DNA of 64,000 nt, taken from contig JBLNEW010000068.1 in assembly GCA_050263095.1 (NCBI GenBank), positions 14,570 to 78,569 of the forward strand. Direction: 5' to 3'. Positions 749 to 64,000 of this stretch are shown piece by piece (position 1 is the stretch's first letter; every line of letters begins with the position of its first letter). This DNA is from Deltaproteobacteria bacterium. GTDB taxonomy: Bacteria > Desulfobacterota > Deferrimicrobia > Deferrimicrobiales > Deferrimicrobiaceae. The position numbers and the translations under genes were made by a program. The notes under the pieces were generated by a model that was given only the letters and a program-made list of their open reading frames with translations, ran no database searches and was not told the DNA's origin.

Positions 749-1726
749 TCACCTCGCGAACTCGAGGATTTCTCCGCTGGCGACCTTCACGGTGCGGTGC
801 GCCCCCTCGCGGCGGAAAAGGAGCTGTCCGGAATCGTCCACCCCGAGCGCCCTTCCGCGGTCTTCTTCCAGGCCGTGCCGCAGAAGCACCCGCTTGCCCA
901 GGAGCGCGTCCCGCCGGTTCCATTCCGGGAGGAGCGCCTTGAACCCGCCGGACAGGAACGCCTCGTAGCATTCCGCGAACGAGTCCAGAAACCGGGCAAG
1001 CACGTCCACCCGCCGGAACGGCCTGCCAGCCGAAATCTTCAACGAGGTCGCCTTTTCCCGCAGCTCTGCTGGGAAGCCGGACGATTCCGCGTTTACGTTA
1101 AGCCCCACTCCGATCACCACGTGGCGCAGCAGGTCCGGGTCGGCCGACATCTCCGCGAGTATTCCCGCGACTTTCCGCCCGGAAAGGAAAATGTCGTTCG
1201 GCCATTTGAGCGATGCCCGCAGGCCGGAGACGTCCTCGATCGCGGCGGCAAGCGAGATCGCCGCGACGAGCGTGAGCCGAGGGGCCTTCGCCGGATCGAG
1301 CCGAGGGCGCAGGAGAAGCGACAGGTAAAGGTTTACGCCGGGCGGAGACTCCCACTTCCGTCCCAGCCGTCCGCGGCCGGAAGTCTGCGCATCCGCGCAC
1401 ACTACGGTGGCATGGGCGGCGCCCTTCCCGGCAAGCTCCGCCGCGCGGCTGTTGGTGCTGTCTGTTACGGGGAAAAAAACCAGCGCTTTCCAGAAATCGG
1501 GGCGAGACAATCGCGAAAAAAGTTCCTTTTCCTCGATCAGGTCGGGTAGCCCGAGAAGCCGGTAGCCGGCCCCCCGGGCCCCTTCAATGCCGAAGCCTCG
1601 TCGTCTTAAGGCCTGGACCTGCTTCCAGACGGCGGCGCGGGACGTTCCCAGCCGCCTTCCGATCTCCTGGCCCGAAACGAACCGCCCCTCGCATTCTTCG
1701 AGCATCCGCCGCAGCAGTTCCCCCAT
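749..1726 (-). CDS. birA: bifunctional biotin--[acetyl-CoA-carboxylase] ligase / biotin operon repressor
   Basis: 325 aa. N-terminal HTH (SGQEIGRRLGTSRAAVWKQVQALRRRG), BPL catalytic core (GRGRLGRKWESPPG ... KWPNDIF) and C-terminal domain. ATG at 1726. Confidence 0.9.
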   Translation of the reverse strand: MGELLRRMLEECEGRFVSGQEIGRRLGTSRAAVWKQVQALRRRGFGIEGARGAGYRLLGLPDLIEEKELFSRLSRPDFWKALVFFPVTDSTNSRAAELAGKGAAHATVVCADAQTSGRGRLGRKWESPPGVNLYLSLLLRPRLDPAKAPRLTLVAAISLAAAIEDVSGLRASLKWPNDIFLSGRKVAGILAEMSADPDLLRHVVIGVGLNVNAESSGFPAELREKATSLKISAGRPFRRVDVLARFLDSFAECYEAFLSGGFKALLPEWNRRDALLGKRVLLRHGLEEDRGRALGVDDSGQLLFRREGAHRTVKVASGEILEFAR

Positions 1727-1811
1727 CCTTCTCCCGTTCCCGAGAACCGAGTTCCGCGTCCATTCTATTTAGCCTTCGGCCCGCGCGGAAATCAACCGAA
1801 AACCGCGCATT

Positions 1812-2393
1812 CTACAGGGGTATCGCCGAATACGGATCGGCGCGCCTTGCCCATTCGCTCTGGGGGTATTTCGCCTTCAGCGAATCGTATGCGCGGCGGA
1901 GCGCCTTCGGGTCGTGCGCGTGCTTGTATCCCGCTACGCCCTGGAGGAAAACAGCCTCCGGGGTCGCCCCCGCGGCCGGATGCCGGTCTATGACGGTCTG
2001 GAACTGGGAAATGGCTTCCGCCATCCGGTCCGTGTCGTAGAGAAGCTTCCCCTTCCCCAAGCCCAGGTTCGCGAAGAGGTCGTCGACCGGAACGAATCCG
2101 ACGAACCGATGGTGCTCCTTGCCTTCCGCGTCAAGGACCAGGAAGGTCGGTGTCCACTTGATGCCGAACCTCTGCATCGGCTCGGTCGGCTTGTCCCAGA
2201 AACACTGGCTTCGGACGGGAACGAACTGCTCTTCCAGGAACTTCTTGACCTGCTCGTCTGAATACGGACCCGTATTCATCCTGGCGCAGCCGATTCAGCC
2301 GTCGAACCAGAAGTCCAGGAAAACGGGTTTGCCGCTCTTGCGCGCCTTTTCCACCCCGGCATTGACGTCTGTTTCCCACCGGATCTCGCCCAT
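1812..2393 (-). CDS. thioredoxin-fold selenoprotein, predicted UxxC redox motif (in-frame TGA at 2295-2297 read as Sec)
   Basis: Track ORF 1812..2279 (MNTGPY...) is in frame with an upstream segment. ATG at 2391-2393 is preceded by GGAGGGAGG, then MGEIRWETDVNAGVEKARKSGKPVFLDFWFDG-TGA-IGCARMNTGPY.... The TGA sits exactly where the first Cys of a thioredoxin WCxxC motif would be (FWFDG-U-IGC), and a hairpin follows 17 nt downstream. selA is present in the same window. Confidence 0.6.
2260..2277 (-). promoter_or_regulatory. putative bacterial SECIS-like hairpin (mRNA GAAUACG-GGUC-CGUAUUC) downstream of the in-frame UGA
   Basis: Perfect 7-bp stem with a 4-nt GGUC apical loop, starting 17 nt 3' of UGA 2295-2297 on the coding strand. 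The apical G/U and the spacing fit the bacterial SECIS model. Judged by eye only. Confidence 0.4.
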
Positions 2394-2472
2394 CGCGACC
2401 TCCCTCCCGCACCGAAGGTTTACCGCAATTTACTTTAATAAGATGCGGGTCGGGATGCGGTAGTTTTTCGCT

Positions 2473-4164
2473 TCAGACGGTAACCTTCCCCCGGTAGGTG
2501 CCGAACACCCCGCGCATGACGTCGGAAATCTCCCCGATCGTCGCGTAGGCCTTGACCGCCGCCAGTATCGGCGTCATGACGTTTTCCTTCCCGCGGCAGG
2601 CCTTGTCGAGCGAGGCGAGCGCGTCGCGGACCGCACGGCCGTCGCGCTTCCGGCGCAGCTCCGCTAGCCGTTTGCGCTGCCCCTTCTCTATCCTCGGATC
2701 GACCGTCAGCAGCTTGTCCGGCCTCACCTCGCTTACTTCGAACTCGTTTACGCCCACGATGATCCGGTCCTTGCGCTCTATCTCCTGCTGGTACCTGTAT
2801 GCCGCGTCCTGGATCTCCTTCTGGACGTATCCCGCGTCGATGGCGTTTATCACCCCGCCCAGCCTGTCGATCTTTCCAATGTATTCCGCCGCCTGCCGCT
2901 CAAGCGTCGAAGTGAGCGCCTCGATGCAGTACGAGCCGGCCAGGGGGTCGACCGTGTCCGCGACCCCGCTCTCATGGGCGATCACCTGCTGCGTGCGGAG
3001 GGCGATCCGCACGGAGTCCTCCGTGGGCAGGGAGAGCGCCTCGTCGCGCGAATTCGTATGGAGGGACTGCGTCCCTCCCAGTACGGCCGACAGCGCCTGG
3101 ACGGTTACGCGGATTATGTTGTTGTCGGGCTGCTGGGCCGTGAGGGAAGAGCCCGCGGTCTGCGTGTGGAACCGGAGCATCCATGAGCGCGGGTCCTTCG
3201 CCCTGAAGCGTTCCTTCATGATCCTGGCCCAGAGCCGCCTCGCCGCCCGGAACTTGGCCACTTCCTCCAGGAACGGATTGTGCGCATTGAAGAAGAACGC
3301 CAGTCGCGAGGCGAACGAATCGACCGACATCCCCGCGTCGATCGCCGCCTGTACGTAGGCTATTCCGTTCGCCAGCGTGAAGGCGATCTCCTGGGCGGCC
3401 GTTGAGCCGGCCTCGCGGATGTGGTACCCGGAAATGCTGATGGTGTTCCAGCGGGGGACGTGGACCTTGCAGTAGGCGAATATGTCCGTGATCACCCGCA
3501 TCGACGGGGCCGGGGGGAAGATATATGTCCCCCGCGCGATGTACTCCTTCAGGATGTCGTTCTGTATCGTGCCGTTGAGGTTTTCCGCGGCGACCCCCTG
3601 CTTCGCGCCGACGGCCACGTACATCGCCAGCAGCACCGCCGCGGTGGAGTTGATCGTCATCGAGGTGGACACCCTCCCCAAGGGGATGCGGTCGAAGAGC
3701 ACCTCCATGTCCTCGAGGGAATCGATCGCCACTCCGACCTTCCCGACCTCGCCCGACGCAATAGGACTGTCGGAGTCGTATCCCATCTGGGTGGGCAGGT
3801 CGAAGGCGACTGAAAGGCCTGTCTGGCCGTGGTCCAGAAGATACCGGTACCGCTTGTTCGATTCCCTGGCGTCGCCGAAGCCCGCGTACTGCCTCATGGT
3901 CCACAGGCGCCCGCGGTACATCGTGGGCTGGACACCCCTTGTGAACGGATACTCGCCCGGGAATCCCAGGTCCCTCAGGTAGTCGAACTCGTCCAGCTGG
4001 GCGGGGGTGTAGAGCCGCTCGACCTCCGCGCCCGATGTGCTCTCGAACTTTTTGCGGCGCTCCGGAGCCTTGCCCACCGCCGGCGAGAGGACTTCCTTCT
4101 CCCACCGGTCCATCGCCGTCCGGAACCGGGAGGCCCCCCCTCCCTTCCTCTTGTCCGACGCCAT
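2473..4164 (-). CDS. methylmalonyl-CoA mutase family protein, catalytic (TIM-barrel) large subunit without a fused B12-binding domain
   Basis: 563 aa. N-terminal region [47 protein letters not shown]... is highly characteristic of MCM/acyl-CoA mutases. Length fits the catalytic domain only. Confidence 0.85.
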
Positions 4165-4173
4165 TTCTTCCCC

Positions 4174-4677
4174 CTATTCCACCAGGAGCAGCTTCGCCCC
4201 GGACTCGACGACCTCGCCTTCCTTCACGAAGATCTCCTTGACCTTCCCCGTGAGCGCGGATTTGAGCTCGTTCTCCATCTTCATCGCCTCGACTACGATG
4301 ACACCCTGGTCGGCCTTGACTTCCTCCCCCAATCCGACCAGGAGCTTTACGACCTTCCCCGGCATCGGCGATGAGACCATGGCCTTGCCGGCCGCCCCCT
4401 TTCCGCCGGCCCGCATCAGCGCCTTCCGCTGCTCGTTCATGAGCGTGAACTTGTAGCAGTCGCCCGCGATCAGCACCTCGAACTCGTCGTCCTTCATCCC
4501 CTGGACGTCCACCTCGAACGAGGCGTCCCCGTAAAGGACTGACCAGACGCTGCTCTGGACCTGGTGCGCGTCGACCAGGTGCTCCTGCCCGTCTATCGTG
4601 ACCACGTACCGGGCGACTCCCGCCTCCCGTACGGCCACCTTCACTTCCTTTTCACCGATAGTCCCGATGTAGTTCAT
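4174..4677 (-). CDS. biotin carboxyl carrier protein-type subunit (biotinyl domain, EAMKM motif)
   Basis: C-terminal GQGVIVVEAMKMENELKSALTGKV biotinyl-lysine motif. I moved the start to ATG (MNYIGT...) at 4677: AGGAG RBS lies 5 nt upstream and overlaps the upstream TAG stop. The track start at 4728 would overlap the upstream gene by 43 nt. Confidence 0.75.
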   Translation of the reverse strand: MNYIGTIGEKEVKVAVREAGVARYVVTIDGQEHLVDAHQVQSSVWSVLYGDASFEVDVQGMKDDEFEVLIAGDCYKFTLMNEQRKALMRAGGKGAAGKAMVSSPMPGKVVKLLVGLGEEVKADQGVIVVEAMKMENELKSALTGKVKEIFVKEGEVVESGAKLLLVE

Positions 4678-4685
4678 GGCAGCTC

Positions 4686-6197
4686 CTAGAGGGGTTTCCG
4701 CATGCCGGGCCGGGTCGAATATTTCCACATGGAGACGGGGCCGGCGGCCGCCGCGGGTTTGTGCGCCATCGCGCGCTTCCGCTCCTCGAGGAACACGTGG
4801 ATCGCCGCCGTGATCATGGCCACGTCCCCGTGCTCGAGCCTGCGCTCCTCCTCTTCCTTGAAGAAGACCTTGTCGATGAAGTTCGTATCGAAGTTACCCT
4901 CTACGAAGTGCCGGTTGTTCATCACGCGGATGTGGAACGGTATCGTCGTCTTGACCCCCGTGACGACGTATTCGTTCAGCGCCCGTCGCATCCGCGCGAT
5001 CGCCTCGGTCCGGTTCTTCCCCCATGCAACCAGCTTGGATATGATCGGATCGTAGTAGATGGGGATCTCGAATCCCTCGAAGACTCCCGAGTCGTCCCGC
5101 ACCCCGGGCCCGCCGGGCGTGCGCAGCGAGGTGATGAGCCCCGGGCAGGGGAAAAAGTTCTTGTCGGGGTCCTCGGCGTAGACGCGGCACTCGATGGCGT
5201 GTCCGTCCTGCCTGACGTCTTCCTGCCGGATGGAGAGCTTCTCGCCGGCGGCCACGCAGATCTGCTCCTTGACGATGTCGACGCCCGTCACCATCTCGGT
5301 GACGGGGTGCTCGACCTGCAGCCTGGTGTTCATTTCGAGGAAGTAGAAGTTGCGATTCGCGTCGACCAGGAACTCGCAAGTGCCGGCGCCTTCGTACCGC
5401 ACCGCGCGGGCCGCCTCGATAGCCACCTTGCCCATCGCCGCCCGCATCTCCGGAGTGACGATGACCGACGGCGACTCCTCTATCACCTTCTGGTGCCGCC
5501 GCTGGATCGAGCACTCCCGCTCGCACAGGTGGACGTAGTTCCCGTGCCGATCGCCCAGGATCTGGATCTCCACGTGCCTCGGCTGCTCTATGTACCTCTC
5601 CATGTATACGGAATCGTCGCTGAAGGCCGATTTCGCCTCGGATTTGGCCATCCGCAGCGCGGACTTGAGCTCCCCCTCCTCCCGGACCAGGCGCATCCCC
5701 TTGCCTCCGCCTCCGGCAGTCGCCTTCAGCATGATCGGGAACCCGATCTCCCGCGCCACGCGGAAAACATCCTCCTCGGTCGCAAGCGGCTCGACCGTGC
5801 CGGGGACGACCGGCACTCCGGCCGACTGCACGGTTTTCCGCGCGATCGTCTTTGACCCCATGGTCCGCATCGCGTGGGCCGAGGGGCCGATCAGCTTGAT
5901 CTTTTCCTTTTCGCACCTGTCGGCGAAGCGGGGGTTCTCGGCGAGGAACCCGTACCCGGGGTGGATCGCCTCCGCGCCGCTCTTTTTCGCCACGTCGATG
6001 ATCTTGTCGATGACCAGGTACGATTCGGAGGCCGGGGACGGCCCGATGAGGACCGCCTCGTCTGCATACCTCACGTGCAGCGCGTGCCGGTCGACCTCCG
6101 AGTACACCGCGACGGTAGGTATCCCCATCTCGCGGCAGGCCCGCTCCACGCGGACGGCGATCTCCCCCCGGTTCGCGATCAGGATTTTCTTGAACAC
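4686..6197 (-). CDS. biotin carboxylase (acetyl/propionyl-CoA carboxylase alpha-type BC subunit)
   Basis: Track ORF 4686..7256 is a chimera with upstream antisense junk. The real start is GTG at 6195-6197 (AGGAGGG RBS, 11 nt after the TAG of the upstream gene), giving MFKKILIANRGEIAVRVERACREMGIPTVAVYSE.... Contains ATP-grasp and BC C-terminal motifs; 503 aa. Confidence 0.9.
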   Translation of the reverse strand: MFKKILIANRGEIAVRVERACREMGIPTVAVYSEVDRHALHVRYADEAVLIGPSPASESYLVIDKIIDVAKKSGAEAIHPGYGFLAENPRFADRCEKEKIKLIGPSAHAMRTMGSKTIARKTVQSAGVPVVPGTVEPLATEEDVFRVAREIGFPIMLKATAGGGGKGMRLVREEGELKSALRMAKSEAKSAFSDDSVYMERYIEQPRHVEIQILGDRHGNYVHLCERECSIQRRHQKVIEESPSVIVTPEMRAAMGKVAIEAARAVRYEGAGTCEFLVDANRNFYFLEMNTRLQVEHPVTEMVTGVDIVKEQICVAAGEKLSIRQEDVRQDGHAIECRVYAEDPDKNFFPCPGLITSLRTPGGPGVRDDSGVFEGFEIPIYYDPIISKLVAWGKNRTEAIARMRRALNEYVVTGVKTTIPFHIRVMNNRHFVEGNFDTNFIDKVFFKEEEERRLEHGDVAMITAAIHVFLEERKRAMAHKPAAAAGPVSMWKYSTRPGMRKPL

Positions 6198-6208
6198 GTG
6201 AAGCCCTC

Positions 6209-7753
<1,545 letters not shown>

Positions 7754-41053: not shown

Positions 41054-41935
41054 TTAATTATCATACTGCAACTGTTTTCTGGCAAACGAAATAAAATTTT
41101 CCGCGGGGACTCTTTTGCCCGTCCACAGGAAGAAGCTCCTGGCCGCCTGGTGCGCCAGCATCCCGAGGCCGTCGACGGCCCTTATCCCCCTCTTTTTCAA
41201 CCGGCGGACGAGCAGGGTTCCTCCTTTCCGGTAAACTATATCGGCAAAACAGGAGGATTTCGTTATATCCGCAATGGGAAAATTTTTCCACTCCCCCGAC
41301 AGGCCAAGGGAGGTGCACTGCACTATCAGGTCGGTTCCGGGGAATTCCTTCTTCATTCCCGAGGGGTTAAGCTCTCCCGCCGAGATCTTCGCCCCTGGGA
41401 ACCGCGGGGAGAGAACGCGGGCGATTTCCTCTGCGCGCGACGGGTGGCGGTTCAGGATGGCCAGGCTGCGGGTGCCGTTGCGGCAAAGCTCATATGCGAT
41501 CCCCCTGGCAGAGCCTCCGGCCCCGAGGATAACGGCCCGCGGGAAGCTGCGCCCCCATCCCTCCCCATTCAGGGCGTTCAGGAAGCCCCGCCCGTCGGTG
41601 TTGTCGGCGACAAGCCGTCCGTCCCTGGCGACTATGACGTTCGCGGCGCCGCATGCCGAAACCGATTCCGACCTCTCGTCGGCCAGGGCCGCGGCCTCTT
41701 CCTTGAACGGGATCGTCACGTTCCCCCCGAGGAAGTTCCCCGAGCGGACCACCCGGAAAAAATCCGCAAGCGAACCGGGCTGAAGATCGACGCCGATATA
41801 TTTCACGGGAAGGCCCAGCCGGGCGATGACGCCGTTGTGCATCGCAGGACTTAGCGAATGCGACAGGGGGTGCCCGACGATGAACAGGAGTGAATCGAGG
41901 AAGCCCCGCCTTCCGTCTTTGCGCGGCCGGGTCAC
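41054..41935 (-). CDS. aroE: shikimate dehydrogenase
   Basis: I start at GTG compl. 41933-41935, forming a GTGA overlap with the HNH gene stop. IVGHPLSHSLSPAMHN substrate motif and GAGGSARGIAYEL Rossmann motif. The track ORF has about 97 extra N-terminal residues overlapping the HNH gene. Confidence 0.8.
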   Translation of the reverse strand: MTRPRKDGRRGFLDSLLFIVGHPLSHSLSPAMHNGVIARLGLPVKYIGVDLQPGSLADFFRVVRSGNFLGGNVTIPFKEEAAALADERSESVSACGAANVIVARDGRLVADNTDGRGFLNALNGEGWGRSFPRAVILGAGGSARGIAYELCRNGTRSLAILNRHPSRAEEIARVLSPRFPGAKISAGELNPSGMKKEFPGTDLIVQCTSLGLSGEWKNFPIADITKSSCFADIVYRKGGTLLVRRLKKRGIRAVDGLGMLAHQAARSFFLWTGKRVPAENFISFARKQLQYDN

Positions 41936-42528
41936 CTTTCGAGTTCTAGGTTCCAGTAAGTGAAGTCTACGACGTTCAGGAACGGCAGCCATTCCCTGTG
42001 GACCGGCGCCCTGAGGGAGAAGGCGTATTCGGGCGTCCACCTGGGGCGCGCCGGGCGAACGATCGTGCGCATCCCTACTTCCTCGGGCAGCATCCCGCCC
42101 TTGCGCTTGTTGCAGGGGAGGCAGCTGCAGACTATGTTCTCCCACGTGGCGTTCCCCCCCCGCGACCTGGGGATCACGTGGTCCAGGTTCAGATCGCTGC
42201 GGGGGTGGGTCTTCCCGCAGTACTGACACGTGTTCCGGTCCCTGACGAATATGTTGTGACGGCTGAAGCGCACCGTGCGCTTCGGGACCCTGTCGTAGGC
42301 GACGAGCACGACCACCCTCGGGATCCGGATCATTCTACCGACGAGCCCGACCGACTCGTCGCTTGTTCCGATGGACAGCTCGCTCCACGACTGGAAATCG
42401 AACATCTCGTAGCTTGAGTTGATGGCCCTGGCCAGGCCGGAGTACAGGAGGCAGAACGCGCGGCGCACATTCGTGACGTGCACGGGGAAAAACGCCCGGT
42501 TGAGGACAAGCACTCCGGAATTCAGCAT
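41932..42528 (-). CDS. HNH endonuclease family protein
   Basis: 198 aa. CQYCGK...DHVIPRSRGGNATWENIVCSCLPCNKRK is an HNH zinc-finger nuclease motif. Translationally coupled to aroE. Confidence 0.75.
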   Translation of the reverse strand: MLNSGVLVLNRAFFPVHVTNVRRAFCLLYSGLARAINSSYEMFDFQSWSELSIGTSDESVGLVGRMIRIPRVVVLVAYDRVPKRTVRFSRHNIFVRDRNTCQYCGKTHPRSDLNLDHVIPRSRGGNATWENIVCSCLPCNKRKGGMLPEEVGMRTIVRPARPRWTPEYAFSLRAPVHREWLPFLNVVDFTYWNLELER

Positions 42529-42589: not shown

Positions 42590-44005
42590 TCATCGAAGCT
42601 CCCCCGCCGCTGCGGCCAGCAGCGCTGCGGCCAGCTCCTGAAGCTCGCCGTCGCGTACGGTCCGCAAGTCGAGCAGAACCCTGCCCTTGCCGATCCTGGC
42701 CACGACGGGCGGGTTCCCCTGCCGCAGCCTGCCCTCGAGCTCCTCTGCCCGCACGCCGGGATGCGATACGGCGACGCAGTGCGTGGGGATCAGGACTTCG
42801 GGCATCGCCCCCCCGCCGGGGGAAGAATGCGCCCGTTCGATCGTCAGCTCGAGCCCCCCCCCGCCTCCCGTCCGGATCCGACGCACCAGCCTGCGCGCCC
42901 TTGCGCGGACGGCGGATTCCCCCTCCGTGATCATGGCCAGCACGGGGACGCGCGCAAGCGCCCTGCGTTCGTCGGCGTACAGGCAGAGCGTTGCCTCCAA
43001 TGCCGCAAGGCACAGCTTGTCGACCCGCAGGGCCCGCGAGAGCGGGTGTTTTTTCAGCGGATCGACGATGGCGCTTCTCCCCGCTATGATCCCGGCCTGC
43101 GGACCTCCGAGCAGCTTGTCTCCGCTTACGGTCACGACTCCCGGCCCCTGCGCCAGGGCCTGGCGGACCGTCGGCGTCCCCGGGATTCCCGCCGCGGAAA
43201 AATCGAACAGGGCCCCCGAGCCCAGGTCCTCCATTACGGGGATCCCCAGCCGCCCCCCCAGCTCGGACAGTGCCGCCGCCGAAACCTCCTCGGTGAAGCC
43301 GGATATGCTGAAGTTGGAGCGGTGGACTTTGAGGAGAAGCGCCGTCCGCGCGGTGACCGCATTTTCATAGTCCGCCAGCCTCGTGCGATTCGTCGTCCCT
43401 ACCTCGACGAGGGTCGCTCCGCTTTCGGACATGATGTCGGGGATGCGGAACGAGCCCCCGATCTCCACCAGCTCCCCGCGGCTGACGAGGACTTCGCGCC
43501 CCCTCGCCATTCCCGCCAGGCACAGGAGCACCGCAGCGGCATTGTTGTTGACCACATGCGCCGCCTCCGCGCCCGTCAGCCCGGCGATCCGGCTCTCGAC
43601 GTGGACCAGGCGGGATGAGCGGCCCCCCGTCGCAAGGTCTAGCTCGAGGTTGGAATAGCCGCGCGCAGCCTCGGAGGCCGCGCGTATGCCCTCTTCGGGC
43701 AGGGGCGCCCGGCCCAGGTTGGTGTGTATGACGACGCCGGTGGCATTGATTACCCTTCGAAGCGACGGCGACTCCCCTGCGGCTATCTCGGGGGGGAGCC
43801 GGGAAAGCAGGAGGGCGGTCCATTCGTCGCGGCCTCGTAACGGGGACGCGGCGAGCGATGCCTCGCCGCGCAGGACCGAGAGCGTCCTGCGGATGGCGTC
43901 CACTACGACCGCGCGCGGGATGCGGGCGAGCAGCCGGCGGATTTCCCTTGATTCAAGCAGGGAGGCGACGGAAGGGATGTTGCGCAGCCGGTCCTGATCG
44001 GGCAT
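42590..44005 (-). CDS. selA: L-seryl-tRNA(Sec) selenium transferase (selenocysteine synthase)
   Basis: 471 aa. SelA N-terminal domain plus PLP fold (VINATGVVIHTNLGRAPL; Lys in SGDKLLGGPQAG). Confidence 0.85.
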   Translation of the reverse strand: MPDQDRLRNIPSVASLLESREIRRLLARIPRAVVVDAIRRTLSVLRGEASLAASPLRGRDEWTALLLSRLPPEIAAGESPSLRRVINATGVVIHTNLGRAPLPEEGIRAASEAARGYSNLELDLATGGRSSRLVHVESRIAGLTGAEAAHVVNNNAAAVLLCLAGMARGREVLVSRGELVEIGGSFRIPDIMSESGATLVEVGTTNRTRLADYENAVTARTALLLKVHRSNFSISGFTEEVSAAALSELGGRLGIPVMEDLGSGALFDFSAAGIPGTPTVRQALAQGPGVVTVSGDKLLGGPQAGIIAGRSAIVDPLKKHPLSRALRVDKLCLAALEATLCLYADERRALARVPVLAMITEGESAVRARARRLVRRIRTGGGGGLELTIERAHSSPGGGAMPEVLIPTHCVAVSHPGVRAEELEGRLRQGNPPVVARIGKGRVLLDLRTVRDGELQELAAALLAAAAGELR

Positions 44006-53731: not shown

Positions 53732-53806
53732 GCCGACGTAGCTCAACGGTAGAGCAGCTGATTCGTAATCAGCAGGTTGCCAGTTCAATCCTGGCCGTCG
53801 GCTCCA
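53732..53806 (+). tRNA. tRNA-Thr (anticodon CGT)
   Basis: Manual cloverleaf. Acceptor GCCGACG/CGTCGGC 7 bp, U8, D-arm GCTC/GAGC, anticodon stem GCTGA/TCAGC with loop TTCGTAA (CGU), T-arm GCCAG-TTCAATC-CTGGC, discriminator T, encoded CCA. Confidence 0.85.
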
Positions 53807-53810
53807 CCAC

Positions 53811-54329
53811 TTACAGGAAAATCACATACTTGCAAGTTGCCGAATCGCGCAGGATCATTCGGGAACGGACGAAATGTAAGGGATTAAGTGCACATTTTAG
53901 ACACATCTTGACGTACTCTAGAGATTTCCCGTTCCCGATGAGCCAGGTTGCGTAGGTGTGCCGAAGGTCGTGAAAGCGAATTTGCCGGAGGCCCGCTTTC
54001 CGCAAGCACGCTGCGAACATATGCCGAACGTTCGCCCCATCCTGCGCCGTCACTTCCACCGATTCCTCCTCATCTTCGGGGAGCCGATATATCTTCGCAG
54101 GGAATACCCACTCGGGCATGGACCGCCCTGCCTTCAACGCTTCCGCAGCCACAGCTCGCCGATGCTCAGTAAGGATAGCCGCCAGCAGGTCGGACAGGTC
54201 CACACGCCGCGCTTTCCCTGACTTCGGCGTGCTGATATGCCCTTCCCAGTTTGCACGCCGCACTTCGATGTATTTCCCATTCCAGTCAATATCGCCCCAT
54301 TGTAAGGCGATCAGTTCTCCCTGCCGCAT
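53811..54329 (-). pseudogene. tyrosine integrase (phage/P4-like), C-terminal catalytic fragment, decayed at both ends
   Basis: Box I GMRQGELIALQWGDID and box II HDLRHTYATWLI are present. The reading frame then diverges into non-integrase sequence before the catalytic Tyr region. Upstream it is joined by a frameshift to ORF 54286..54633. It is 4 nt from the tRNA 3' end. Confidence 0.7.
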
Positions 54330-54689
54330 CCCTTGTTCCGTCAGCCAATCTATACGGGATTTCTACCCCGTCTATCCGATCTTTCAAGCCCAACGATTCC
54401 AAAAACTCAACCGGGATCCGCTTTATTTCAGCTAGTGCCGAGACTGTGACTGATCCACTCGACACAATGCCCGCAATGCGTTTTTGCTCATTTAACGCCG
54501 CGAAAACCGCTTCCGGCGGGCACCCGGCATGACAATGTAAAACGACATCAACCTTTTCACCTGGGTTGACGCTAAGGGAAGGATTGCTGTCCGCATGCGC
54601 GGGCAGCAAGCTGTGAAACCTTGGCCGTTCCATTTAACCCCCTCTAAAAGGTCGGCAATTTCTTGTAATCGTGGGTTGTTGATTTTCAT
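54286..54689 (-). pseudogene. remnant of phage/plasmid primase zinc-binding (CHC2-type) domain, frameshifted and fused to the integrase fragment
   Basis: Two overlapping frames together read ...KWNGQGFTACCP / AHADSNPSLSVNPGEKVDVVLHCHAGCPPEAVFAAL, the CHC2 primase zinc-finger pattern (CPFH-D--PSLSV---G---HCFGCG). Continues into integrase-like sequence with another frameshift. Confidence 0.45.
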
Positions 54690-54931
54690 CGGGTCTCTCT
54701 TCCTCCAGCATCAACTCCGCGGAATATAGCGACCACATCATCGACACATATCGGCTCTTCGCGGTACTGCGCCAACCAGCGATCCACATCTTCGGTCCGG
54801 AAAAGGATGCCGCTACCTGGAGGATGTATGTGCGGAACATATGGCAATAGATGTCGTCGTGCCCAACGTGCGAAACGCCCGCCGCAATACATTCCAGCCT
54901 GTGCCAATGTCAAATACACCGTTATAGACAT
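54686..54931 (-). CDS. AlpA/excisionase-family small HTH protein (possibly degenerate)
   Basis: ITVYLTLAQAGMYCGGRFARWARRHLLPYV...ILFRTEDVDRWLAQ matches the phage AlpA/Xis DNA-binding pattern (l-eaA-yLgvs--tlyRwv--G-fP ... f--edvdaWl). About 80 aa. Confidence 0.4.
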   Translation of the reverse strand: MSITVYLTLAQAGMYCGGRFARWARRHLLPYVPHIHPPGSGILFRTEDVDRWLAQYREEPICVDDVVAIFRGVDAGGRETR

Positions 54932-55041
54932 GCCCATAAGCTCCTTTATAGGGGGCTATCTCGAAAACTATTACTGTTGTAAGGCTGAATGAAAAACTTG
55001 GGTCCAGGCTATATGGACGGAAAAAGAGGACGATATAGCGG

Positions 55042-55689
55042 TTAATACCGCCTATTTTTTAGTCGCCTTCTCCTTTCGGCGACGTAACTGGCGTCGTACT
55101 CTTTCTCCGGATACATCGCACGTAGTAGGGACGCGACTATCTCATCACAAGGGCGGCCGAACCGGTTCTCAAGCCTGTGAGATAACCGTTTAATGAACAT
55201 ATCTGGTGCAGGAGGTTTCCGTCCGGGCTTGCCTTTTTCCTTTGCCCATTGTTCATAAATGTAGATACAGTACCCCACTTCTTCGGCGTCTGGGTTTAAT
55301 AGCGGAACGTCTTCACGCCTTATTAAGCGAATCGCTGCAGCCAAATCGCTGAAGTATTTATTGGGATATCGTTTCCCCGCGATGATTTTGATGTCCGCGC
55401 ACATTCCTATTATGTCTGCAAAATCCTTAAGGTCATTATCGCAACCATCGGCGCATGCAACAAGATATTCTCTTAGGGCAACCGTTGCGAAATCATCAAT
55501 TAGATGGGTATCTACGCCTTCTTTGACAGGTTTCGGTTTGAGGATCTGTAGCGCTTCTCGAAGTTTCTCGGGATTGTCGCGAATCGATGTTTGGAGATGC
55601 CTCTTGACGGCCGTTTCCCAGTTTGCTGGAATTTTTATCGCGGAAAGATTCTTTCGCTTTGGCATGATTCCACCTCCCGGGACCCTCAT
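55042..55689 (-). CDS. hypothetical protein (island-borne, no recognisable domain; not a recombinase)
   Basis: 215-aa ORF in AT-richer DNA, divergent from the cassette array. No R..HxxR..Y tyrosine-recombinase motifs. Confidence 0.45.
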   Translation of the reverse strand: MRVPGGGIMPKRKNLSAIKIPANWETAVKRHLQTSIRDNPEKLREALQILKPKPVKEGVDTHLIDDFATVALREYLVACADGCDNDLKDFADIIGMCADIKIIAGKRYPNKYFSDLAAAIRLIRREDVPLLNPDAEEVGYCIYIYEQWAKEKGKPGRKPPAPDMFIKRLSHRLENRFGRPCDEIVASLLRAMYPEKEYDASYVAERRRRLKNRRY

Positions 55690-56014
55690 TATTACCCGAA
55701 TCGGTGTCTACGAAACCAGGGGAACTCCAGTAGATCTAGCGCACGTGCGGGAAAATTTATTTGAGTACATTCAATTTCCTCGATATGATTCGCACATTAA
55801 TGAGAGATCGTTTGCCATTCCTATTCGGCTACACCTTCGATATTTTCTCAACTGCCGATTGAGCGCCCCCGCATTCCTCAGCATCCGGGGGATCAAGGAG
55901 CCGGGCTTGAGCAGGATGTTCAGGCTACGTTATCCAGGGCATGGCTGCAGGACATGCACCCTAATCCTATCCTTGAATATGTGCTTTATGATTTTTATAG
56001 GCGAGAAATTTACA

Positions 56015-56032
56015 GTCTAAACCGCGTTAGGC
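56015..56032 (+). repeat. minimal attC/attI-like site GTCTAAAC-CGC-GTTAGGC upstream of the first cassette
   Basis: Inverse-core-like GTCTAA(A)C and GTTRRRY core GTTAGGC are separated by 3 nt and lie 36 nt 5' of the first cassette ORF. May mark the insertion point or a collapsed attC. Confidence 0.25.
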
Positions 56033-56068
56033 GAACGATGGAATTATATATAAAAAGGAGAACAAAAT

Positions 56069-56419
56069 ATGGTTAGGGAGATATCAAAATATAAGCCATC
56101 TTTTTCAACGTGCCCATTATGTAATAGCACTATGTCGAGTAAAGAAATACGAGGGCATGTTGTTCGGTGCCAAAAGACGAAACATATTGGTATTGGCGTT
56201 AAGCAATTATCAAAAAATACCGTATTGATTACAAAAAATATACTGTGTAAAGAATGTGGATTAGTCAAGGCCGCCACTTATGATATGAACAATAAAAGAC
56301 CGCCTAAAATTTGTAATGCATGTAAGAAAAATCCTCCTATTAAGTCGAACGATAAATTCGACCCATTAGACCGTTCTATCAGTGGTGGGGCATTTGAAAT
56401 GAATCGAAGGAGACATTAA
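56069..56419 (+). CDS. cassette ORF 1: small Cys-rich (double zinc-ribbon-like) protein, unknown function
   Basis: 116 aa. CPLC...HVVRC and CKEC...CNAC pairs. AAAAGGAG RBS. Followed 8 nt later by attC-like R1. Confidence 0.55.
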   Translation: MVREISKYKPSFSTCPLCNSTMSSKEIRGHVVRCQKTKHIGIGVKQLSKNTVLITKNILCKECGLVKAATYDMNNKRPPKICNACKKNPPIKSNDKFDPLDRSISGGAFEMNRRRH

Positions 56420-56427
56420 TTTACGTC

Positions 56428-56493
56428 GCCTAACCACCGTTTGCAGATGACGGCTTGCAGCTTTCTCGCTGAGCGCAAAGAACTGAAGCGGAG
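56428..56493 (+). repeat. attC-like site R1 (left half intact: GCCTAAC-CA-CCGTTTGCAG ... CTGAAGCGGAG; right core lost)
   Basis: RYYYAAC inverse core GCCTAAC. L''-like CCGTTTGCAG faces L'-like CTGAAGCGG with one extra G. Shares the central consensus GACGGCTyGC...CTTTCTCGCTGAGyGC with R2 and R3. Confidence 0.5.
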
Positions 56494-56526
56494 ATGGGCA
56501 GTAATAATAACAAGGGGAGATCACAA

Positions 56527-56862
56527 ATGGGAGCTGTGGAAAACATAAAAGAAATTGCCGACCTAATAAAGAAGATCGGCGATGCTGATTTGTATCGAAA
56601 GATAGTAGAGTTGGAACATGAAGTATTTGAACTTTCATGCCAAAACCTATTAAGTCTGAGTAAGATCGAAGAGTTAAAAGAAATTTTGCGTGTCAAACAG
56701 AACATCAAATACGATGGCCAAGTATACTATCTTGAGGGAGATTCCGTTCCCTATTGCCCAAAATGCTGGGAAGTTACTAGAGCACTGGTTCACCTAACAG
56801 AATCCGCGAGCCCAAGTTTTGGTCACTGTCCGAATTGTGAAAATTCATTCAGAGTTAGGTAG
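56527..56862 (+). CDS. cassette ORF 2: small coiled-coil protein with C-terminal zinc ribbon, unknown function
   Basis: 111 aa from ATG 56527 (AAGGGGAGA RBS 6 nt upstream). CPKC...CPNC at the C-terminus. Track start 56494 lies inside R1. Confidence 0.55.
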   Translation: MGAVENIKEIADLIKKIGDADLYRKIVELEHEVFELSCQNLLSLSKIEELKEILRVKQNIKYDGQVYYLEGDSVPYCPKCWEVTRALVHLTESASPSFGHCPNCENSFRVR

Positions 56863-56902
56863 ATCTTGGGTTGCTATATTCCAAATTTCTAGGAGATAGC
56901 AC

Positions 56903-57343
56903 ATGAATTTCAATCATATATGTCTCTATACCGATGGTGGTAGCAAAGGCAATCCAGGACCCGGCTCGATTGCCTTAATAATCTGTAACTCAAACAACGA
57001 AATATTACAGGAATATTCGGAATGCATTGGCCACTGCACCAATAACCAAGCAGAGTATAAAGCATTAATAAAAGGCCTCGACTTATCAGCAAGGTATACC
57101 CGGCGGAAGGTAACCTGTTACTCCGACAGCGAACTATTGATAAAACAAATGAATGGACAGTACAGATTAAAAAATGCTGCACTCAGAAAGTTGTTTCACC
57201 AAGTCCAGGACCTAGTTCGGATGTATGACGAGGTAGTATACCAACATGTACTCAGAGGAAATCAGCGAATAACGCGGGCTGACCAGCTTGTAAAGCAGGC
57301 CCATGCGGGGAGACATATTGATAAGGTGCATGTCATACCGTGA
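56903..57343 (+). CDS. cassette ORF 3: RNase HI-like (type 1 ribonuclease H fold) protein
   Basis: 146 aa. YTDGGSKGNPGPGSIA (Asp1), NNQAEYKALIKGL (Glu), CYSDSELLI (Asp2), C-terminal RADQL (Asp3). Aligns by eye to the E. coli RnhA catalytic residues; lacks the basic protrusion. Confidence 0.75.
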   Translation: MNFNHICLYTDGGSKGNPGPGSIALIICNSNNEILQEYSECIGHCTNNQAEYKALIKGLDLSARYTRRKVTCYSDSELLIKQMNGQYRLKNAALRKLFHQVQDLVRMYDEVVYQHVLRGNQRITRADQLVKQAHAGRHIDKVHVIP

Positions 57344-57347
57344 CGCC

Positions 57348-57421
57348 AGCTAACCACTGCTTGGCACTGACGGCTCGCGTCTTTCTCGCTGAGTGCCCGC
57401 AGCTGAAGCGGAGCGTTAGAC
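57348..57421 (+). repeat. attC-like site R2 (AGCTAAC ... CTGAAGCGGAGC-GTTAGAC), 74 bp
   Basis: Starts 5 nt after the ORF 3 stop and ends 24 nt before the ORF 4 start. Ends in GTTAGAC (GTTRRRY). The left end is its imperfect reverse complement. Internal L''/L' pairing with an extra G. Confidence 0.55.
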
Positions 57422-57445
57422 CGACTGAAAAATGGGAGGAGGGAA

Positions 57446-57718
57446 TTGAAACACTCACTGAGAAACTTATTCGTTTTCCTGTCCATTATGGGTTTAATCG
57501 TTTCCGCATGTGCTCATCAGCCAACTCCAGCCGCATATGATCCCCCAGGATTCTTCTCTGGTCTATGGCATGGATTTATTATTTTATTCAGTCTCATTGG
57601 AAGCATTTTTTCCGACATTAGAATCTACGCATTTCCAAATTCAGGTGGGTGGTACGACTTTGGTTTCTGCATAGGGGTAACTGCATTTTTTGGTGGAGGA
57701 GCAAGTGCTGCAACATGA
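57446..57718 (+). CDS. cassette ORF 4: small lipoprotein / membrane protein
   Basis: 90 aa from TTG (GGAGGAGGG RBS just upstream). MKHSLRNLFVFLSIMGLIVSAC has a lipobox-like signal peptide, then two hydrophobic helices and a Gly-rich tail. Confidence 0.5.
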   Translation: MKHSLRNLFVFLSIMGLIVSACAHQPTPAAYDPPGFFSGLWHGFIILFSLIGSIFSDIRIYAFPNSGGWYDFGFCIGVTAFFGGGASAAT

Positions 57719-57753
57719 GTGGAAAAACAAACAAGGGACATTTTGTTTACGCG

Positions 57754-57826
57754 GTCTAACTACCGCTTGCAAATGGCGGCTCGCGTCTTTTCGTTTAGCG
57801 CCCGCTGCTGAAGCGGAGCGTTAGAC
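57754..57826 (+). repeat. attC-like site R3 (GTCTAAC-TA-CCGCTTGCA ... TGAAGCGG-AGC-GTTAGAC), 73 bp, best-preserved copy
   Basis: R'' GTCTAAC and R' GTTAGAC are perfect reverse complements. L'' CCGCTTGCA pairs with L' TGAAGCGG leaving one bulged G. Starts 36 nt after the ORF 4 stop and ends 15 nt before the ORF 5 ATG, with GGAGGAG between. Confidence 0.6.
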
Positions 57827-57841
57827 CGCGGAGGAGAAATA

Positions 57842-58480
57842 ATGAAGAAGATATCAGTGAAGGGATTGGCGGATTATATGACGGCAAGTGCTGCGGCACA
57901 AAGGAGGTTAATACGGCAATACAAATACCCTTCTGAGGATGAAGCACGAGCGAAAATTTTGTATTACCGCGAAGCAAGGGACCGAATTGAGGCGTTCCAT
58001 AGAAGAGGACGGGATGCGGATTGGCTCAGGTCCCAAGCATCAAACCTCCGAGGTCTTGCTTTGCTCTCCTCTGTGCGAACACGCACACGCCTTCGACACA
58101 ATGCACGGGCACTTATAGATTATGGGCGGAACTTCAGCACCAAGACATTTTCGGTTCTCCCCGATATATCATTATCCGTTCAATATGGCGATCTTCGGAT
58201 AACAGCATTCCCTGATCTATATGTGAATGAAGATGGTGAATCAAAAATAATTAAACTAGATTTTTCCAAGAAACCACTGCCATCGGACGTACCAAAAATA
58301 ATATGTCAGGTGTTCCTAGAAGCCTCGATCCAAGCAGGTATGAGCATTCAAGCAAAAAATATTCTTCTATTCGATGTTACGAGAGGCAAAGAATATAAAC
58401 AAGCAAGAATAGGAGCAAGAATGAGTAGGAATATAGAAGCGACATGCCAAACGATTTCTGCTGTCTGGGACACAATATAA
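57842..58480 (+). CDS. cassette ORF 5: hypothetical protein (possible PD-(D/E)xK-like motif FPDLYV...ESK, weak)
   Basis: 212 aa, no confident domain. GGAGGAG RBS. Confidence 0.5.
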   Translation: MKKISVKGLADYMTASAAAQRRLIRQYKYPSEDEARAKILYYREARDRIEAFHRRGRDADWLRSQASNLRGLALLSSVRTRTRLRHNARALIDYGRNFSTKTFSVLPDISLSVQYGDLRITAFPDLYVNEDGESKIIKLDFSKKPLPSDVPKIICQVFLEASIQAGMSIQAKNILLFDVTRGKEYKQARIGARMSRNIEATCQTISAVWDTI

Positions 58481-58489
58481 ATTAAGACG

Positions 58490-58618
58490 GTCTAACTACC
58501 GCTTGAAGCTGACAGCTCCTTCTGGTCACAGTTCTTGCGGATTGGCGGCGCACCGAAAAGCCTTGGCCGTCGGGGTAAGGCTCGCCCCTCATCTCGCGGC
58601 TTAAGCCGAACGTAAGGC
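58490..58618 (+). repeat. attC-like site R4 (GTCTAAC-TA-CCGCTTGAAGC ... GCGGCTTAAGCCG-AAC-GTAAGGC), 129 bp, long/degenerate
   Basis: Left 20 nt nearly identical to R3. Right end GCGGCTTAA(G)C..GT(a)AGGC resembles known attC 3' ends, with a degenerate core. L''/L' again differ by one extra G. Confidence 0.45.
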
Positions 58619-58641
58619 ACAATGGGGAGGTACATACATTC

Positions 58642-59346
58642 ATGGCCATCCTGGCATTAAGTTGTACAAAATGTGGCAAAGAAAAGCCGATATTTATGGG
58701 GGATGAATTCGCCGGCATTAGGGATGAAATTGCCGGCAATGTGATCCATTGCGATGCATGCCACGAAATAATAATAAGATGCAGAGTTATAAGAGGTTAT
58801 ATCTACGTGTTATCTAATCCGTCGATGCCAGGACTATATAAGATTGGTATGACAAGAAGGCCACTGGGAGACAGAGTTAATGAATTGGGAGCGTCAACTG
58901 GGGTTCCAACACCTTTTGTTGTTGAGGCATACTTCGAAACCAACGACCCAGAAGAGCATGAGAGAAAGGTTCATATCGCCCTTGGGGAATACCGGATGCC
59001 AAGCAAAGAATTTTTCAGACTGCGTCTTGAGGAAGTGCTGAAAGCCGTTAAGGACATATGCGGACTGGAAAGCGTATCCAATAATTATTATTTTCAGGTT
59101 AATCAAGATGATAGCCAAGCGGAATACCCCGACGGAGCCCCACGAGAGTACCGAGGACAGTCTGAGCATCTCTTTCAAAAATGTCCACCGGTTGGGCATG
59201 AAAGAATCTTCGGAATCAGTTTGAACAGCAACATGAGGGCTCAATGTCGAAGCTGTGGCGCATTGTTATCACCACGAGCATCGGTTTGTGGATTCTGTAA
59301 TAAACCTCTGGAGGACAAAGACGTAATTATTGTTGAAAAAAAGTGA
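58642..59346 (+). CDS. cassette ORF 6: T5orf172/GIY-YIG-like domain protein flanked by N- and C-terminal zinc ribbons
   Basis: 234 aa. GYIYVLSNPSMPGLYKIGMTRRPLGDRVNEL...PFVVEAYFETNDPEEHERKVHIAL...EFF matches the T5orf172 (GIY-YIG-related) pattern. CTKCGK...CDAC and CRSCG...CGFC ribbons. Confidence 0.6.
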   Translation: MAILALSCTKCGKEKPIFMGDEFAGIRDEIAGNVIHCDACHEIIIRCRVIRGYIYVLSNPSMPGLYKIGMTRRPLGDRVNELGASTGVPTPFVVEAYFETNDPEEHERKVHIALGEYRMPSKEFFRLRLEEVLKAVKDICGLESVSNNYYFQVNQDDSQAEYPDGAPREYRGQSEHLFQKCPPVGHERIFGISLNSNMRAQCRSCGALLSPRASVCGFCNKPLEDKDVIIVEKK

Positions 59347-59521
59347 CGATGTATTAGTGAAAATTGGCCTATGTGCCTAACAAGCACAGGCGTATACGAA
59401 GACATGAAAAAAAATATGATTCCTCCGCGGATGGGATATTCTCGACAAAAAGGAGGTCGACTTCGAGGTGAACAGATGTTGACATTTCCAATGCCTACGA
59501 TCCTTCAGGTGGCCTGAGACG

Positions 59522-63910: not shown

Positions 63911-63965
63911 TCGAGAAAACAATACGACTCTTTGAAACCAAGAACCTTTCACAAGGAGGCGTTCC

Positions 63966-64000
63966 ATGAGGGTTGAGCTGACCTTGCCGGAAGAGTTCGC
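63966..64000 (+). CDS. start of an unidentified gene (MRVELTLPEEF...), truncated by window end
   Basis: AAGGAGG RBS 6 nt upstream of ATG; only 11 codons visible. Confidence 0.25.
   Translation, partial: MRVELTLPEEF

Follow-up and report, generated by a model that had tools for sequence, protein, structure and literature searches.

A thioredoxin-fold gene split by an in-frame UGA in a Deferrimicrobiaceae bacterium is predicted to encode an unannotated member of a known selenoprotein family

The DNA analysed here is a 64,000-nucleotide (nt) stretch of contig JBLNEW010000068.1 from a bacterium of the Deferrimicrobiaceae, referred to below as the window. Its minus strand carries, from 2393 to 1812, a gene that very probably encodes a single 193-residue selenoprotein of thioredoxin fold, in which an in-frame UGA is recoded as selenocysteine (Sec, U); we put the probability of this reading at roughly 93%. 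A preliminary description of the window had presented the gene as an unannotated selenoprotein. It is indeed unannotated, yet the family has already been published as a selenoprotein family and the gene is therefore not new in that sense: sequence comparison confirms it as a new member, belonging to a divergent subfamily, of a family of predicted selenoproteins.

On the minus strand the order GGGAGGGAGG-TCGCG-ATG can be read from the sequence, with the start codon at 2393-2391. Thirty-two sense codons (MGEIRWETDVNAGVEKARKSGKPVFLDFWFDG) separate this ATG from the TGA, which is followed by ATC GGC TGC GCC AGG and then by ATG 2279, the start of a 155-amino-acid (aa) open reading frame (ORF; MNTGPY...), all within a single frame. 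The joined product has 193 aa, and the UGA lies in the context FWFDG-U-IGC. The internal ATG at 2279 is directly abutted by ...CCAGG and has no properly spaced Shine-Dalgarno (SD) sequence. The proposal that the 155-aa ORF is in frame with 38 upstream codons beginning at an ATG with a ribosome-binding site was verified for both the frame and the SD sequence GGAGGGAGG. Scans for promoters and terminators around the gene were negative.

The protein fold extends across the UGA. With Cys substituted for U, the Pfam family Thioredoxin_7 covers residues 5-89 (profile positions 1-83 of 83, E 2.6e-11) and Thioredoxin_2 (PF13098) covers residues 17-107 (E 1.1e-12). The thioredoxin fold assigned in the preliminary description is thus recovered over residues 5-109, and since the domain is complete only with the upstream extension, the 38 upstream codons form part of the protein. 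The C-terminal part gives weak TPR matches over residues 113-185 in Pfam and weak YbgF/BamD-type matches in an NCBIfam profile search. In an AlphaFold model of the Cys-containing homologue P0004, which is 69% identical (mean pLDDT 96.7, pTM 0.91), residue 33 directly follows strand 24-29 and lies at the N-terminal end of helix 34-41, the canonical CxxC position, and an all-helical domain spans about 103-190. For the N-terminal 115 residues, the best Foldseek match in the PDB is DsbD-gamma (1uc7_A, E 5.8e-08, rmsd ~2.1 Å), the DsbD-gamma matches having TM scores of 0.76-0.79 normalised to the target (0.76 for 1uc7_A); second and third come the YbbN/CnoX structures 3qou and 3qdn (Salmonella), with E ~2e-07. 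Judged from the model, the 155-aa product would be without strand 1 and without the active-site motif of the fold.

The evidence for recoding is mainly comparative. Scanning GTDB with a single genome for each species provided 80 related loci, which together with the window make a set of 81 sequences. All 80 loci carry TGA in the same column, never TAA or TAG, and all have a conserved extension of about 32 codons upstream of it, starting with ATG (GTG in locus L066). The layout ATG...TGA...stop is common to all of them, with full-length products of 187-202 aa. The hosts include Deferrimicrobiaceae, Geobacteraceae, Desulfuromonadales, Syntrophaceae, Desulfobacterales, Nitrospirota, Thermodesulfovibrionales, NC10, Brocadia and Syntrophorhabdaceae, among others; the closest locus (L001), from a Deferrimicrobiaceae metagenome-assembled genome (MAG), is 95% identical to the window. 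Within the extension, synonymous entropy is about 1 bit while W6, D27, F28 and W29 are kept, and this combination of synonymous drift with fixed residues indicates that the extension is translated. Two rare full-length homologues of 193 aa and 69% identity, P0004 (FWFDG-C-IGC) and P0007 (FWFKD-C-IGC), have TGC at codon 33. The TGA had been placed at the first Cys of a WCxxC-type motif, giving UxxC, and an alignment with Cys homologues had been proposed as a check: the U column is indeed Cys in both proteins. Among the genome loci, Sec forms outnumber Cys forms by 80 to 0. A family whose members all begin at the internal Met and lack a conserved extension is seen only superficially, in the protein databases; at the DNA level the extension is kept everywhere.

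Two subfamilies can be distinguished. Subfamily 1, with the pattern DFWF[DE]G-U-xGC...MNTGPYS, comprises the window, L001-L048 and L050; subfamily 2, with DFFNP[GNQ]-U-[IL]GC[QK]QMD, comprises L049 and L051-L080. A further cysteine, Cys64 (codon 2202-2204 on the minus strand, ...RSQCFWD...), hardly varies in subfamily 1, and subfamily 2 (...RIPADDP...) does not have it. As its column has about 1 bit of synonymous variation, the constraint on Cys64 acts at the protein level, and this residue might be an extra redox residue or a metal ligand specific to the window's subfamily. Two TGA-bearing members lie on contigs binned to other phyla, namely L007 (a Candidatus Limnocylindria MAG, Chloroflexota) and L066 (a Draconibacterium orientale MAG, Bacteroidota), the remaining hosts being Desulfobacterota, Nitrospirota, NC10 and Planctomycetota; the placement of these two could reflect mis-binning or lateral transfer.

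Downstream of the UGA lies a candidate bacterial selenocysteine insertion sequence (bSECIS), the hairpin UGAAUACG-GGUC-CGUAUUCA. Counted from the UGA, the stem begins after 16 nt and the loop after 24 nt; folded in isolation, the hairpin has an energy of -8.6 kcal/mol. The preliminary description had reported a perfect 7-bp hairpin with a GGUC loop: hairpin and loop stand, and the length is 8 bp in the window, 7 of which are conserved in relatives. The consensus model of Zhang & Gladyshev 2005, as summarised in PMC13188914, specifies a loop of 3-9 nt with an upper stem of 4-16 bp, a G among the first two loop nucleotides, as a rule with G or U after it, a distance of 16-37 nt from the UGA to the apical loop, and a minimum free energy (MFE) of -7.5 kcal/mol or lower. 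The window hairpin passes all four criteria (loop of 4 nt, 8 bp, spacing of 24 nt, -8.6 kcal/mol), in agreement with the earlier remark that it falls within the bacterial SECIS range. Its relatives have stems of 6-8 bp (n=80) and spacings of 23-25 nt between UGA and loop, and 58 of the 81 members pass the same four criteria when the minimal 25-nt piece is folded.

Conservation of this hairpin is visible both in its pairing and in the codons that it overlaps, where a lack of conservation in orthologues would have spoken against it. From the TGA onwards the 81 sequences can be aligned without a gap, the hairpin staying in the same register, with the helix at columns 20-27/32-39. Standard pairs occupy 90.5% of helix cells, against 20-56% once the 3' partners are shifted by 1-3 columns. 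Compensatory exchanges are found at 22:37 (AU<->GC in 27 sequences), 23:36 (AU<->GC in 4) and 24:35 (UA<->AU in 4), and the resulting covariation score (3 pairs, 35 cells) was reached by 0 of 500 shuffles. In the loop, G28 is invariant, the next base is G or U in nearly all sequences (A in 3), and U30 is at least 90% conserved. RNAalifold, applied to 72 nt, recovers the hairpin de novo as the sole consensus structure. We then compared synonymous sites over 148 degenerate conserved codon columns of 46 subfamily-1 genes, which come from several phyla. Codons 40-44 are almost frozen (AAT 42/42, ACG 41/41, GGT 43/43, CCG 43/44, TAT 46/46) and are the only 5 of the 148 columns to have less than 0.3 bit of synonymous entropy, compared with a median of 1.27 bit in the others. 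Such frozen synonymous sites point to a constraint on the RNA rather than on the protein, and they are the strongest single result in favour of a predicted RNA element. Judged by base pairing, the hairpin is eroding in both Cys forms: L081 has pair 22:37 broken and a loop U changed to C, and L082 has pair 24:35 broken and the otherwise invariant C26:G33 replaced by A:U. An extended lower helix including the UGA, hinted at by single-sequence folds of some relatives, was unsupported by RNAalifold on the same 72 nt. An Rfam scan gave no match at the hairpin, which is uninformative, as we know of no bacterial SECIS family in Rfam.

The window also encodes selA, a marker of UGA decoding as Sec in the organism, about 40 kb from the selenoprotein gene. 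The identification had been made from the letters alone and is genuine by TIGR00474 (Table 1). To our knowledge, selA has no role besides making Sec-tRNA(Sec).

Several observations weigh against a selenoprotein gene. A mechanical scan of the window, whose GC content is 64%, finds 123 pairs of ORFs (at least 120 codons) joined by a TGA, none of the others having an obvious redox-motif context, and the local 66-nt fold around the hairpin is ordinary when compared to shuffled sequences (z = -0.75). Taken alone, frame, motif and hairpin thus do not exceed chance, and the significance of the UGA and of the hairpin derives from the comparative evidence. At -8.6 kcal/mol the hairpin is a modest one, and 23 of the 81 sequences fall just short of -7.5 kcal/mol when the minimal hairpin is folded in isolation; most of the 23 miss the energy threshold alone, at -6.5 to -7.4, and L029, with a broken stem pair, reaches -2.7. 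The hairpin overlaps conserved codons, so that part of its conservation could be protein-level, although the frozen synonymous sites argue against protein-level conservation as the whole explanation. As for the Sec machinery, selB, selC (tRNA-Sec) and selD were not found within the 64-kb window: ARAGORN and Rfam report tRNA-Thr only over the window, with no tRNA-Sec, and selA is flanked by ORFs for an HNH endonuclease, for a GntR regulator and for aroE, with no selB or selD there. Among the related loci there is no conserved operon partner pointing to a substrate. Finally, recent reviews place the family among those 'predicted with high confidence' and not among the experimentally verified ones (PMC9312934, PMC13188914).

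These points have to be set against three other ways of reading the TGA. The simplest is that it is a true stop, the real gene being the 155-aa ORF from ATG 2279 and the 32-codon ORF a separate peptide or a non-coding leader. Gene callers agree with this, as do the 322 of 324 listed homologues that start at Met39, and the 123 pairs counted above illustrate how easily TGA-joined ORFs arise by chance. However, such a product would be missing strand 1 together with the entire active-site motif, while all 80 loci, across phyla, keep the upstream 32 codons as protein with synonymous drift. Only TGA, never TAA or TAG, stands at this position, and Cys replaces it in two continuous homologues of 193 aa; properly spaced SD sequences are lacking at ATG 2279 and present (GGAGGGAGG) at ATG 2393; and the frozen synonymous sites mark an RNA element exactly at the place expected for a SECIS. 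A true stop is thus strongly disfavoured by the sequence comparison, and we regard it as very improbable. A pseudogene, or a sequencing or assembly error in a Cys codon, is less probable still. A single-base change does turn TGC or TGT into TGA, and the window is probably MAG-derived, as is its nearest relative L001; but the same TGA recurs in 80 assemblies that are independent and span different phyla and studies, it is also present in an isolate-derived sequence of Geobacter metallireducens, and outside this codon the frame is intact and evolves under purifying selection. For practical purposes the 80/80 conservation of TGA refutes both possibilities, as far as sequence comparison can, and leaves them a negligible chance.

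Alternatively, the UGA could be read through by means other than Sec insertion, such as a near-cognate Trp or Cys tRNA or a reassigned stop codon, with the hairpin merely stimulating read-through. In its favour, Sec insertion is so far a prediction, and selB, selC and selD are not seen in the window. Against it, TGA is an ordinary stop for other genes of the window, for instance the mutase ORF 2473-4164 that ends ...GKVTV-TGA, which shows that the codon is not reassigned here. The position affected is moreover that of the nucleophilic Cys of CxxC, a known site of Sec/Cys exchange, the hairpin matches SelB-binding bSECIS elements in spacing and in its G[G/U] apical-loop signature, and selA is intact. 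Read-through without Sec therefore seems about as improbable to us as a true stop, and Sec insertion at residue 33 is the interpretation that we retain.

Under Sec insertion, expression of the gene could proceed as follows. Ribosomes would start at ATG 2393 and recode UGA 2297-2295 co-translationally, inserting Sec as residue 33. The hairpin at 2278-2259, as the putative SECIS, would recruit the SelB-GTP-Sec-tRNA(Sec) complex to the ribosome, the charge of this tRNA being made by the selA product. The resulting protein would be a selenol/thiol-disulfide oxidoreductase in which U33 attacks a substrate disulfide (or a sulfenate or selenenylsulfide) and C36 resolves the intermediate, and in which the TPR-like domain probably supplies binding of a partner or of the substrate. 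No N-terminal hydrophobic signal sequence is evident in the 193-aa protein, which is consequently predicted to be cytoplasmic.

Annotation of the family is deficient well beyond this gene. The protein-database matches listed include 324 cluster representatives, of which 322 are truncated at Met39 (145-164 aa, plus fragments of 121 and 107 aa), so that the only full-length entries among those listed are the two Cys forms. In the best 120 matches, 118 are 121-164 aa long and start at the internal Met, and only P0004 and P0007 have 193 aa. Truncated entries are found in RefSeq, also for isolates, for instance WP_072285542.1 (Syntrophotalea acetylenica, from a complete genome) and WP_320371480.1 (Trichlorobacter), and in GenBank for Geobacter hydrogenophilus, G. 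grbiciae and G. metallireducens RCH3. The expectation that standard gene callers truncate the gene, nearly all database homologues starting at the internal Met, is hence well founded. Once its gene model is corrected to 193 aa instead of 155, the protein regains its active site and the organism's predicted inventory gains a selenoprotein. It also exposes a systematic gap, almost every member being truncated, with no NCBIfam model to rescue it, some 20 years after the family was published. The 81-sequence set, with its SECIS in a fixed register, its covariation and its near-exclusive use of Sec, would suffice to build such a model. A specialist will not be surprised by the gene itself: its value lies in the annotation correction, in an unusually clean comparative SECIS data set and in a family whose function is uncharacterised.

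In the window, the selenoprotein gene stands within a cluster related to biotin and propionate metabolism (749-7753, minus strand; Table 1), and this context, with the mutase upstream and birA downstream, is common only to the window and its closest relatives. Directly downstream of selA, an ORF of 198 aa (41932-42528, minus strand) encodes an HNH endonuclease (PF14279 and PF01844) that weakly matches IscB/Cas9d models in their HNH region; it overlaps the annotated start region of aroE (41054-42229). Further along, a low-GC island (53732-64000, GC 0.43-0.57 against ~0.64 elsewhere) starts right after tRNA-Thr(CGU) at 53732-53806. Besides the ORFs given in Table 1 it contains several without a Pfam match, and it is probably a mobile or defence island integrated at the tRNA gene.

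Table 1. Features of the selenoprotein gene and of the surrounding window (window coordinates)
Feature	Position	Strand	Remarks
Complete selenoprotein gene (predicted)	1812..2393	-	193 codons + TAG stop (1814-1812); Sec (U) = residue 33
Shine-Dalgarno GGAGGGAGG	2399..2407	-	spacer 5 nt to true start ATG 2393-2391; read directly
UGA codon, predicted Sec	2295..2297	-	first position of U-I-G-C redox motif
TGC codon, putative resolving Cys36 of UxxC	2286..2288	-	column is an invariant Cys in all loci
Putative bacterial SECIS hairpin UGAAUACG-GGUC-CGUAUUCA	2259..2278	-	loop 2267-2270; overlaps codons M39-S45
Thioredoxin-like domain, residues 5-109	2067..2381	-	PF13098 1.1e-12, PF13899 2.6e-11
C-terminal helical, TPR-like domain, residues ~113-179	1857..2057	-	TPR_16, TPR_6 below curated cutoffs
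selA (L-seryl-tRNA(Sec) selenium transferase)	42590..44005	-	TIGR00474 567.8 bits vs cutoff 267.9, 453/455 model positions
birA	749-1726	-	downstream of selenoprotein gene
Methylmalonyl-CoA mutase N-terminal domain	2473-4164	-	upstream of selenoprotein gene
Biotinyl-carrier domain protein	4174-4728	-	
Biotin-carboxylase-like ORF	within 4686-7256	-	assigned by reading the translation
Carboxyltransferase	6209-7753	-	
Phage-integrase-family ORF	53811-54329	-	low-GC island
T5orf172/MUG113 (GIY-YIG-like) ORF	58642-59346	+	low-GC island
SF1-helicase-like ORF, 1462 aa	59522-63910	+	AAA_11/AAA_12/AAA_30; low-GC island

Several known systems resemble the window protein in part. With DsbD-gamma (1uc7, 2fwg, 1vrs) it shares the thioredoxin fold and a CxxC/UxxC motif at the N-terminus of helix 1. 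DsbD however has a membrane domain and an N-terminal Ig-like domain, whereas the window protein has neither, carries Sec in place of Cys and adds a TPR-like domain. DsbD and TsoB are the best NCBIfam sequence matches, both below threshold. DsbD membership was rejected at 37.9 bits for PRK00293 (cutoff 330), only the C-terminal thioredoxin domain (profile 461-568) being matched, and TsoB (NF045694) at 40.0 against 805 bits. The VPGUxxT models NF041382 and NF041383 (33.1 vs 275 and 29.0 vs 350 bits) and the Trx7/PDZ model NF041199 (28.8 against a cutoff of 300 bits) were discarded likewise, and with all NCBIfam scores sub-threshold no NCBIfam model covers the family.

A second resemblance is to the E. 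coli 'chaperedoxin' YbbN/CnoX (3qou; Salmonella 3qdn), a soluble protein that also joins an N-terminal thioredoxin fold to a helical TPR domain. CnoX carries SxxC instead of the redox-active UxxC/CxxC. It differs further in its length of ~285 aa, its domain arrangement and TPR length, with 13-14% identity, an rmsd of 11-12 Å over the whole chain and a TM score of 0.42-0.43, and no family-level sequence match to CnoX/YbbN was found. The architecture is analogous, without support for membership. The window's clade (DFWF[DE]G-U-xGC...MNTGPYS, with Cys64) is widespread, occurring in Deferrimicrobiaceae, Nitrospirota, Thermodesulfovibrionales, NC10 and Desulfobacterota. By analogy with CnoX/YbbN, one could speculate, at rather long odds, that it is an undescribed and almost obligately Sec-dependent subfamily acting as a cytoplasmic, selenium-based, 'chaperedoxin'-like selenol oxidoreductase of thioredoxin fold, with its clients tethered via the TPR-like domain, and not as a periplasmic electron carrier of DsbD type, the role implied by the historical name of the family.

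At the RNA level, the hairpin resembles the SECIS of E. coli fdhF type, and the bSECIS model, in lying within the ORF just 3' of the UGA and in having a small apical loop with G followed by G or U. GGUC is the tetranucleotide exposed in the apical loop of the fdhF SECIS. In contrast to the fdhF type, the window stem is short and without a bulged U, and no conserved lower helix with the UGA in it was recovered.

The closest known system is the 'Thiol:disulfide interchange protein' selenoprotein family (PF13098, UxxC, representative WP_011366075.1), which the reviews of 2022 and 2026 credit to Kryukov & Gladyshev 2004 (PMC9312934, PMC13188914). Its members in Zhang et al. 2006 are G. metallireducens, G. 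uraniireducens and Syntrophus aciditrophicus (PMC1794560, supplementary file 4). The G. metallireducens homologue EHP89026.1, which belongs to subfamily 2 and is annotated with 152 aa, reads MAQIEWITSLAEGLSMAGRENRLVLLDFFNPG*IGCKQMDAVAYPD... when translated through its TGA. The translation of locus L083 (5887-6462) is identical to the prototype sequence in that supplementary file. On this G. metallireducens-type contig and its equivalents L084-L086, the family member is called as ORFs of 32 and 152 aa in public assemblies. It lies directly upstream of the oxidative pentose-phosphate cluster rpiB-gnd-zwf-pgl (Gmet_2618-2621; PMC2700814), with a barnase/barstar pair nearby, and the G. metallireducens member may have a link to NADPH supply.

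Over 191 aa, that is, over its full length, the window protein shares 41% identity with the G. metallireducens prototype (E 2e-50), which places the gene in a selenoprotein family predicted two decades ago; prototype and window loci were also retrieved by one and the same homology search. Both are proteins of about 190 aa with a thioredoxin fold, matching PF13098, and a helical C-terminal domain. The U of FFNPG-U-IGC in the prototype and that of FWFDG-U-IGC in the window fall in the same column (G-U-[IL]-G-C), and the SECIS is in the same register. Published members differ in having DFFNPG-U-IGC[QK]QMD and loops that are mostly GUUA or GUCA, where the window's subfamily has Cys64 and a GGUC loop. 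The strings FWFDGU and MNTGPYS, typical of the window's subfamily, are absent from the 2006 supplement (PMC1794560). On this comparison, the window's subfamily may not have been listed explicitly before, though it is the same kind of protein.

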